From Escherichia coli (lineage in GTDB: Bacteria; Pseudomonadota; Gammaproteobacteria; Enterobacterales; Enterobacteriaceae): a stretch of 60,072 bases of DNA. Shown in pieces: positions 28,901 through 31,900 of this stretch. The stretch is taken from NCBI RefSeq assembly GCF_017348835.2, contig NZ_CP072314.1; one strand, written 5' to 3'. The position numbers are program-made. Numbering within the stretch: the stretch's first letter is position 1; each line of letters begins with the position of its first letter.

Positions 28901-31900
28901 TTTCTCATGTTAAAATCTTGGATGGATTCTGTGTCCAGTCTGCTGGCAGGGGGGGGCTCCTGGGGCATTTATTGGGAGACCGGCGTGGGCTCGAGGGGAG
29001 AGTTGCCGCCCTGGAACGGATGTTAAACCAAAACCAGAACCCAATAAAAGCACATAATGAATTCATGAATGCGGTTCTGGAAAGCAGTATATAACATATA
29101 TCGAAAGAAAAGCCGGCACACCTGAAAGTGCTGAGTAATATGATTTGTGTCCGGCCTCCGGGGCCCAAATTCAATGAGTTCAACTAAAGGAGAAACGTCG
29201 CAACGAGTTTCTCCTTTCTCGGATATGACTTCAAAGTGCGTACGCTGAAGAATTTCAAAAGCGAACTGTACCGAAAATGCATGCCGGGTGCGTCAAATGC
29301 AGCAATGCGCAAAATAACAGAAACAATCAAGAAGTGGCGTATACATCGCTCAACAGCTGAGCGCTTGCTGGATTTTGCGAGGCGCTACAATGCGATAGTG
29401 AGAGGCTGGATCGGGTACTACGGAAATTTCTGGTCCAGAAATTTCAACTATCGACTGTGGAGTGCAATGCAGTCACGTCTGCTCAAGTGGATGCAGTCTA
29501 AATATAGACTTTCGAACCGGAAGGCTCAGCGAAAGCTGACGCTGGTAAGGAAGGAGTATCCGAAGCTATTTGTCCACTGGTATTTACTACGTGCATCGAA
29601 TGAGTGATCAAGAGCCGTATGACGCGAGAGTGTCACGTACGGTTCCATGAGCAGCCGGGGAGTGAAATTCTCTCCGGCTGACTCGACTCGCAGGTTCCTA
29701 CAGCGGTGGCGAACAGCTGAAAAAGGTTCATTATTTTATGGAAACCGTGAGCCCATTCCCCGGTGGTAAACATGGGCTGGTAAAAGTGTAGCGGTATTCG
29801 GCACAGCTATTTAGAGCAGGCACGCTGATTATATTAACGTTAGGAGATCCAAATACCAATTTTGAGCGTCCTTACTGTATCGCAGACACTGGCATCATTG
29901 AATACCTCTCATTACTTTATGTTTTTAATAAAAAGAATAAAACTAAATGATTTATTTTTTGTTTTCATTCTATTTATCTGGTTGATTTTTTTGTTTTCAT
30001 GGGGTATTGGTATTGGTGTATGGCTCTTATGGCTGAGAGCTTTATTGATAAATAACAGAGCTGTTTTCATCACAATTGCTTCGAAATGGATCTTGAGGCT
30101 GGTGATGAAAACGCCATATACAAAACCATGAATAAAATTTACTCATTAAAATACAGTCATGTAACCGGTGGACTTATTGTAGTATCCGAACTGGCATCCA
30201 GAGTCATTAAGAAAACAATCCGCAGCAGTATTTTGACATTATTAAATTTATCACTGTGCGGTGTTTTTTTTAGCACCGCACAGTCCGCTCAACTAAATAT
30301 TAATAATGTATGGGCTAGAGATTATTTAGACCTTGCACAAAATAAGGGGGTATTTAAAGCAGGAGCAACCGATGTATCAATTCAACTCAAGAATGGTCAG
30401 TCGTTTAATTTCCCAAAAGTTCCAATTCCTGATTTCTCACCAGCATCAAATAAAGGAGCAACCACATCTATTGGTGGAGCATATAGTGTCACTGCCACTC
30501 ATAACGGAACAGTTCATCATGCAGTAAGCACTCAAAATTGGGGACAAAGCTCATATAAATATGTAGACAGGATGACAAAGGGGGATTTTGCAGTAACCCG
30601 ACTTGATAAGTTTGTTGTTGAAACTTCAGGTGTAAAAAATTCTGTAGACTTCTCTCTCAATAGCCATGACGCTCTTGAGCGTTATGGTGTGGATATCAAT
30701 GGCGAAAAAAAAATCGTTGGTTTCAGGGTTGGAGCCGGCGTTACTTCAGTCGTTCAGAATGGTGCTTCGTATAACACAGAACAGGCGTATAATCCCCTTC
30801 TGTTAAGTGCATCAATGTTTCAGTTAAACTGGGATAACAAAAGACCATATAATAACACAACTCCTTTTTATAATGAAACTACCGGTGGGGACAGTGGTTC
30901 CGGTTTTTATCTCTATGATAATATAAAAAAAGAATGGGTGATGCTGGGTACTCTATACGGGATAGCATACTCAGGTAAAAATGTTTGGTCAATATTAAAC
31001 CAGTATGATAACAATACGGTTAATAATCTAAAAAATATATTTACTCAGAATATCCAGATAAATGATGACACATTATCACTTAATAGTAATAGGTATACAT
31101 TAAATGGCGATGAAACTAAACTTGAAAAAATTAATAATAACTATAAAGACCTAAGTTTTAGTGGTGGTGGAAGTATTAATTTCGACAATGACGTAAACAT
31201 TGGCTCTGGAGGTCTCATTTTTGATGCTGGGCATCATTACACAGTCACTGGTAATAATAAAACCTTCAAAGGTGCCGGGCTGGATATTGGTGAAAATACT
31301 ACAGTTGACTGGAATGTGAAAGGGGTTGCGGGTGATAACCTGCATAAAATTGGTGCAGGTACGCTGAATGTTAATGTTTCTCAAGGTAATAATCTGAAAA
31401 CTGGCAATGGCATTGTCGTATTAAATAGCGCTAATGCATTTAATAATATTTATATGGCCAGTGGTCATGGTGTTGTAAAAATTAATCATGACGCAGCGCT
31501 TAACCAGAACAATGACTATAGAGGTATTTTCTTTACTGAAAATGGTGGTACTCTGGATTTAAATGGTTATGACCAGAGTTTTAATAAAATTGCAGCGACA
31601 GATACGGGAGCACTCATAACAAATAGTGCAGTGCAGAAAGCAGTTCTTTCTGTTAATAATCAGTCAAGCTATATGTATCATGGCTCCGTTTCAGGAAATA
31701 CAGAGATAAACCACCAGTTTGATACCCAAAAAGATAATAGTCGCCTGATTCTGGACGGTAATGTCGATATTACAAATGACATTAACATTAAGAATAGCCA
31801 ACTCACCATGCAGGGGCATGCTACATCTCATGCTGTATTTAGAGAGGGCGGGGTTTCCTGTCTGATACCTGGTGTTCTTTGTGACAAGGATTATGTTTCA

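Follow-up and report, generated by a model that had tools for sequence, protein, structure and literature searches.

E.c.I3 is a class D group II intron of Escherichia coli, and we follow Leclercq and Cordaux (2012; PMC3522654) for its name, its class, and its homing site. Under their naming rule, a copy is assigned to E.c.I3 when its nucleotide similarity to the reference intron is >90%, and the homing target of the intron is IS679 (PMC3522654). The copy that served as our standard of comparison, E.c.I3-2b, lies in PAI I on the chromosome of E. coli 536 (NC_008253 4007952-4009775, 1824 nt; PMC3522654 Tables S3 and S2), is 99% similar to the reference intron (PMC3522654), and encodes an intact intron protein of 410 amino acids. 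Fragments of E.c.I3 have also been published, namely E.c.I3-tr1 from the E24377A plasmid and E.c.I3-tr2, -tr3, and -tr4 from Shigella virulence plasmids (PMC3522654). RmInt1 from Sinorhizobium meliloti, another class D intron, resembles E.c.I3: it encodes a short protein without the DNA-binding/endonuclease (D/En) domain, has an insertion sequence as its homing target, and becomes fragmented as it decays (PMC1802570, PMC4496777).

Here we describe a copy of E.c.I3 in a 60,072-nucleotide stretch of E. coli DNA (contig NZ_CP072314.1), referred to below as the window. Rfam matches in the window include inverted copies of the ALIL frameshift pseudoknot of the IS3 family and of isrC (19235-19351, minus strand, with 49140-49256, plus strand; 25704-25826, minus strand, with 45234-45356, plus strand). 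They also include the IncF plasmid RNAs CopA, sok, AS-pc02, and FinP/traJ 5' UTR, with listed coordinates 41380-41468, 43344-43499, 43952-44137, and 52252-52363. These inverted pairs and IncF RNAs identify the window as part of an IS-rich F-type virulence plasmid. An original prediction, made from the sequence alone, had placed the 3' remnant of a group II intron, consisting of a maturase fragment and a domain V, at 29236-29760 and upstream of a SPATE gene.

Positions 29186-29687 of the window (plus strand) form an ungapped alignment with positions 1323-1824 of E.c.I3-2b from E. coli 536 (1824 nt), with 492 of 502 nucleotides identical (98%), no insertions or deletions, and ten substitutions. 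This 98% identity to E.c.I3-2b places the copy above the similarity used to name E.c.I3, and the published 3' end of E.c.I3-2b coincides with position 29687. The feature is very probably a copy of this class D intron that has lost its 5' part and is inert, and nothing contradicts its identification as E.c.I3. The features of the locus are as follows:

29175-29186, no strand assigned: 5' truncation junction, where the espT 3' flank meets intron position 1323 (alignment; the join is between 29185 and 29186)
29186-29687, plus strand: 3' remnant of group II intron E.c.I3 (ungapped identity to E.c.I3-2b; homology to all longer copies begins at 29186)
29188-29607, plus strand: intron-protein pseudogene fragment (Pfam GIIM; partial TIGR04416; RefSeq pseudogene in pPE164)
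29612-29645, plus strand: intron domain V (RF00029 alignment and minimum-free-energy structure)
29649-29684, plus strand: intron domain VI (minimum-free-energy structure; the intron end is the published E.c.I3-2b end)
29688-29715, plus strand: 3' exon remnant, 28 nt of IS679/IS66-family tnpC (…F/AGSYSGGEQ; contiguous with the intron in all copies)
29716-29798, plus strand: DNA that in ETEC plasmids borders the IS66-family element on its outer side (L001 alignment and blastn)

Alignment with two longer copies, L001 from an ETEC plasmid and L002 from an EPEC-type plasmid with per genes, locates the breakpoint between 29185 and 29186. A megablast search against plasmids returned 266 records, and in nearly all of them the match starts at window position 29186; the matches include 126 Shigella plasmids and the E24377A plasmid, with plasmids of Sinorhizobium and Rhizobium matching more weakly. 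Genome sequences hold roughly 170 copies. The interval given by the original prediction therefore overlaps the remnant but needs to be shifted: the true intron, 29186-29687, begins 50 nt before the GTG at 29236, and of the sequence beyond its end, 29688-29715 is IS66-family tnpC exon and 29716-29760 is not intron.

Full-length E.c.I3, as found in PAI I of E. coli 536 and in ED1a, shares with the window copy the same 3' splice junction, the IS66-family tnpC 3' exon, and the short protein C terminus, whereas the window copy is without positions 1-1322 and the 5' exon and differs by the ten substitutions. E.c.I3-tr1 to -tr4 resemble the window copy in being decayed and in residing on large virulence plasmids with IS679 remnants, but they have other breakpoints and flanks, and the arrangement of espT, the 502-nt fragment, and the SPATE gene is not listed in PMC3522654. 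RmInt1 is a different intron with ISRm2011-2 as its target and has active copies, whereas the window copy appears dead.

The RNA structure at the 3' end of the intron is preserved. When the whole 60-kb window was scanned with Rfam at gathering thresholds, there was one group II intron match, RF00029 at 29610-29687 (plus strand), which covers the full domain V/VI model; its score of 54.4 bits exceeds the gathering score of 40, and its E value for the whole window is 6e-8. Domain V begins 4 nt past the TGA stop at 29605-29607, much as predicted for a textbook hairpin a few bases past the open reading frame, and consists of the 34-nt hairpin GAGCCGTATGACGCGAGAGTGTCACGTACGGTTC. The hairpin contains the AGC triad, has a bulge of 2 nt (AC), and is closed by a GAGA tetraloop. 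The predicted fold of 29608-29690 (83 nt) contains exactly two hairpins and has an energy of -45.1 kcal/mol (z = -6.6), with none of 200 shuffled sequences as stable. The single bulged A of domain VI is at 29681, 7 nt from the intron end (…CUGACUCGAC, which ends at 29687). The fragment has, in other words, both the domain V hairpin of a group II intron and a domain VI with the bulged branch-point A at the usual 7-8 nt from the 3' splice site.

The reading frame at 29188-29607 retains codons 272-410 of the 410 in the intron protein (139 codons): the last part of RT domain 7, the X/maturase domain, and a short tail that runs to the stop codon. The truncation falls within codon 271, the FLGYDF motif of RT domain 7 lies just downstream of the frame start, and the frame stays open upstream of GTG 29236 as far as 29188. 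The frame matches Pfam GIIM (PF08388) with an E value of 2.8e-14, in line with the predicted domain-X-like maturase fragment, and covers positions 258-352 of 353 in the NCBIfam model TIGR04416 (group II RT/maturase) with 54.7 bits, compared with a cutoff of 300 bits and a score of 390 bits for the full 536 protein. The YADD motif of the intact 536 protein is upstream of the break and is thus absent from the window frame; where a complete intron-encoded protein has RT domains 0-7 with YADD, the frame keeps only the final part of domain 7, together with the X domain. The stop codon follows the GIIM match by 25 amino acids and precedes domain V by 4 nt. A Pfam search of the frame matched no HNH/endonuclease family, and the protein, as is characteristic of E.c.I3, ends without a C-terminal D/En domain. 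Relative to 536, the frame has five nonsynonymous and three synonymous changes, which is a pseudogene pattern. RefSeq labels its counterpart in pPE164, a plasmid with 100% identity, as an incomplete pseudogene for a "group II intron maturase-specific domain-containing protein". The covariance-model search proposed as a check on the original prediction thus returned RF00029 above its gathering score, and with both an intron RNA and an intron protein matched, the Rfam RF00029 and Pfam GIIM results bear out the claim of a group II intron 3' remnant with a maturase fragment and domain V.

The remainder of the intron is missing, as the original prediction had noted for the 5' domains. The group-II-D1D4 models gave no Rfam match in the 60-kb window, although the same models do match the longer relatives, and blastn of the window with the longer L001 copy recovers only the last ~500 nt and no part of E.c.I3 positions 1-1322. 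The 5' GUGYG sequence and domains I-IV with their exon-binding sites are not found in the window, whereas relatives have both the D1-D4 match and the 5' part of E.c.I3. Gone with positions 1-1322 are domains I-III and most of domain IV, along with RT domains 0-6; the 5' exon is missing as well. Because it has no domain I-IV scaffold, exon-binding sites, or RT active site, the remnant should be unable to splice, reverse-splice, or move, and on the basis of its sequence we predict that it is inactive for both splicing and retrohoming.

The 3' flank records where the intron had inserted. Alignment with the other copies continues beyond the intron through the 28 nt at 29688-29715, TCGCAGGTTCCTACAGCGGTGGCGAACA. 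In E. coli 536, the joined exons form an unbroken IS66-family TnpC frame, …GRKNWLF/AGSDSSGEHAAVLYSLIG…, also given as …GRKNWLF/AGSDSSGEHAAVLYSLIGTCRLNNVEPEKWL… (with the slash at the insertion point). The insertion site is between the NWLF and AGS codons and is testable in the window on the 3' side alone, since the 5' exon is deleted; on this side it agrees with the specificity of E.c.I3 for the IS679/IS66-family transposase gene. The intron entered an IS679/IS66-family transposase gene, rather than the SPATE block itself. In the ETEC plasmid L001, tnpC continues for 190 bp to the end of the insertion sequence, which is followed by GCAACAGCTGAAAAAGG…. In alignment, these 190 bp are gone from the window and from L002, and GCGAACA is fused to GCTGAAAAAGG. 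The 190 bp, and with them the IS end, were lost by deletion between short repeats of AACA (microhomology).

From 29716 on, the sequence is DNA upstream of an EspC-like SPATE gene, which lies ~440 nt downstream of the remnant, in the predicted order. The gene occupies 30086/30128-34069 (plus strand), and its start is likely ATG 30128 (MNKIYSLKYS…) rather than the upstream ATG 30086. Its product is closest to EspC (PDB 9mne, 1626 bits), and its 81.5% DNA identity to chromosomal espC makes it a plasmid-borne EspC variant. About a dozen plasmids retain the remnant in this upstream position.

A stretch of ~100 bp at 29712-29814, past the IS66 deletion junction, recurs with 93-95% identity beside the IS630-family transposase genes of hundreds of EHEC chromosomes (O157:H7, O26, O111, O55:H7). 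Just 3' of the SPATE gene are scrambled IS66/IS679-family tnpC pieces at 34717-34941 (minus strand) and 34935-35839 (plus strand). In the minus-strand piece, the E.c.I3 insertion point is not interrupted by an intron (…EDWLF/ARSDSGGEH…), which makes this piece part of an empty homing site. The IS end of the piece points toward the SPATE gene, as a mirror image of the IS66 remnant on the upstream side, so that IS66-family copies in inverted orientation may once have lain on both sides of the SPATE gene. A proline-rich repeat open reading frame at 34150-34620 (plus strand) is annotated in part as "EspF repeat-containing protein" in pPE164, which, with espT, puts type III effector genes on both sides of the SPATE block.

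On the 5' side, espT (28005-28589, plus strand) matches Pfam IpaB/EvcA and is annotated as EspT in the identical plasmid pPE164; the neighboring open reading frame at 28771-29094 has no Pfam or NCBIfam match. Homology to a diverged espT-like locus is lost at about 29174, and the identical espT/intron junction is also seen in pPE164, in a dog plasmid, and in pDEC5B-4. The espT flank reaches about 29174-29185 with no recognizable IS terminus at the 5' junction, which suggests that the join arose by illegitimate deletion. Directly at the point of truncation, 29188-29215 forms a perfect 8-bp inverted repeat, GGAGAAAC-N12-GTTTCTCC. It is completed by a lineage-specific A-to-T change at 29212 (other copies have GTTTCACC) and may be due to chance.

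Comparison of the copies suggests that the remnant is a mosaic. The window shares the espT/intron junction and 29212T with pDEC5B-4 (L005, from an O55:H7 strain), whose copy is not followed by a SPATE gene. With the per-SPATE plasmids L002 and L010, it shares 29362C, 29364C, 29647A, and the 190-bp deletion, whereas pDEC5B-4 has the ancestral states at 29362, 29364, and 29647 and a different IS66-type end remnant. With two such sets of shared derived characters, no single tree fits. When the window is compared with pDEC5B-4, the differences rise abruptly from 8 in 1337 nt to 13 in 198 nt; the best breakpoint is 29251, which is 65 nt into the intron fragment (Fisher p 1.5e-7, with no correction for the scan of about 1400 positions). 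The simplest reading of these sequences is that one of the lineages underwent homologous exchange within the remnant, and the few informative sites behind this reading, consisting of one junction, four substitutions, and one deletion, do not tell which lineage is the recombinant. Passive, repeated homology for recombination would then be the only demonstrable effect of the remnant. That it acts as a recurrent recombination adaptor (portable homology), by which espT, other type III effector genes, and the EspC-like SPATE gene were shuffled time and again among virulence plasmids, or that its structured domain V/VI RNA belongs to a long 5' leader and influences SPATE expression, we consider very unlikely.

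The pDEC5B-4 copy has a history of its own. The middle of its fragment (window 29450-29565) is replaced by ~600 bp of unrelated DNA (L005 4853-5447), which bears an open reading frame annotated as an aminoglycoside phosphotransferase family protein. Its exon stub is followed by the different IS66-type end and then by IS2.

A functional fragment, whether as one half of a split (trans-splicing) intron, as a maturase or domain V RNA working in trans, or as a cis element (5' UTR or promoter) for the SPATE gene, is highly improbable. The frame is open over 139 codons with the GIIM domain intact, yet its amino-acid changes outnumber its silent ones, and the sequence 5' of GTG 29236 shows neither a Shine-Dalgarno sequence nor a start context. 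Domain V is able to complement in trans in vitro, and domains V and VI are structurally perfect in the predicted fold, but the break is inside the RT coding region, not in the domain IV loop, and there is no 5' half within the window; we rejected the split-intron reading on these grounds. A promoter and terminator scan found no promoter-like (sigma-70-like) sites in 29000-30150 and one weak terminator-like hairpin at 30022-30041. Although about a dozen plasmids keep the remnant 5' of the SPATE gene, the SPATE plasmid L011 lost the whole intron part through an IS630 event and retained the gene. The lack of a predicted promoter, this loss in L011, and the internal replacement of ~600 bp in pDEC5B-4 argue against any selected role.

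The timing of the truncation can be read from the longer copies. L002 and L010 have the 190-bp deletion and the SPATE flank as in the window, yet they keep the intron from about position 20, with a D1-D4 Rfam match and most of the RT frame. Because the window and these longer copies have this derived 3' flank in common, they descend from one shared insertion, and the window's loss of positions 1-1322 came later, at the level of DNA, not from abortive reverse transcription. It is very improbable that the fragment was instead born truncated, with abortive reverse transcription during retrohoming or retrotransposition placing the 3' end alone beside espT in LINE-like fashion: incomplete cDNA synthesis in target-primed reverse transcription would give 5'-truncated copies with an intact 3' end, and the 3' end of the fragment is precise, but we rejected this reading because the same derived 190-bp-deleted exon flank is borne by the much longer L002 and L010 copies and because the 5' flank is unrelated espT-flanking DNA, not tnpC exon 1. 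The longer copies thereby support the interpretation, offered with the original prediction, of the 3' remnant of an old group II intron insertion that was truncated later.

The longer copies are themselves decayed. L002, a per-SPATE plasmid, lacks the first ~19 nt of the intron (at about 2702); in the ETEC L001 copy, the intron protein is frameshifted and the tnpC 5' exon has an internal deletion (3225-3488, 3241-4434). The 410-aa frame is intact in one of the five copies examined, the chromosomal copy of 536.

A sequence of events can be proposed for the origin of the remnant. E.c.I3 would first have retrohomed into its usual tnpC site, NWLF/AGS, in a plasmid-borne IS679/IS66-family insertion sequence. 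Comparison of copies shows that the 190-bp microhomology deletion then took the remaining tnpC sequence together with the IS end and fused the 3' exon stub to DNA upstream of the EspC-like SPATE gene. A DNA-level deletion or illegitimate join, also shown by the copies, next removed positions 1-1322 and the 5' exon, so that the espT 3' flank meets position 1323, and left over the 139 codons of the maturase end together with domains V and VI. Finally, this ~500 bp of repeated homology may have served as a passive substrate for exchange between plasmids with different flanks.

RefSeq already marks the counterpart of 29188-29607 as a pseudogene in pPE164, so the remnant is already known. Absent from that annotation and from PMC3522654 are the exact boundaries, the assignment of this copy to E.c.I3, and the history of the espT/SPATE junctions. 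The practical value is small: exact boundaries and the name E.c.I3 for the RefSeq "maturase-specific domain-containing protein" pseudogene, and two diagnostic junctions, 29185/29186 and 29715/29716, with which the joining of the espT and EspC-like SPATE blocks can be traced among the IncF virulence plasmids carried by E. coli from pigs, dogs, and humans. Boundaries, naming, and junction history are bookkeeping and raise no new biological question. The remnant fits the published picture, in which the group II introns of Enterobacteriales are mostly decayed fragments within mobile elements that reside on plasmids and islands; it is an ordinary non-functional scar, and chiefly a marker of how a virulence plasmid was assembled.
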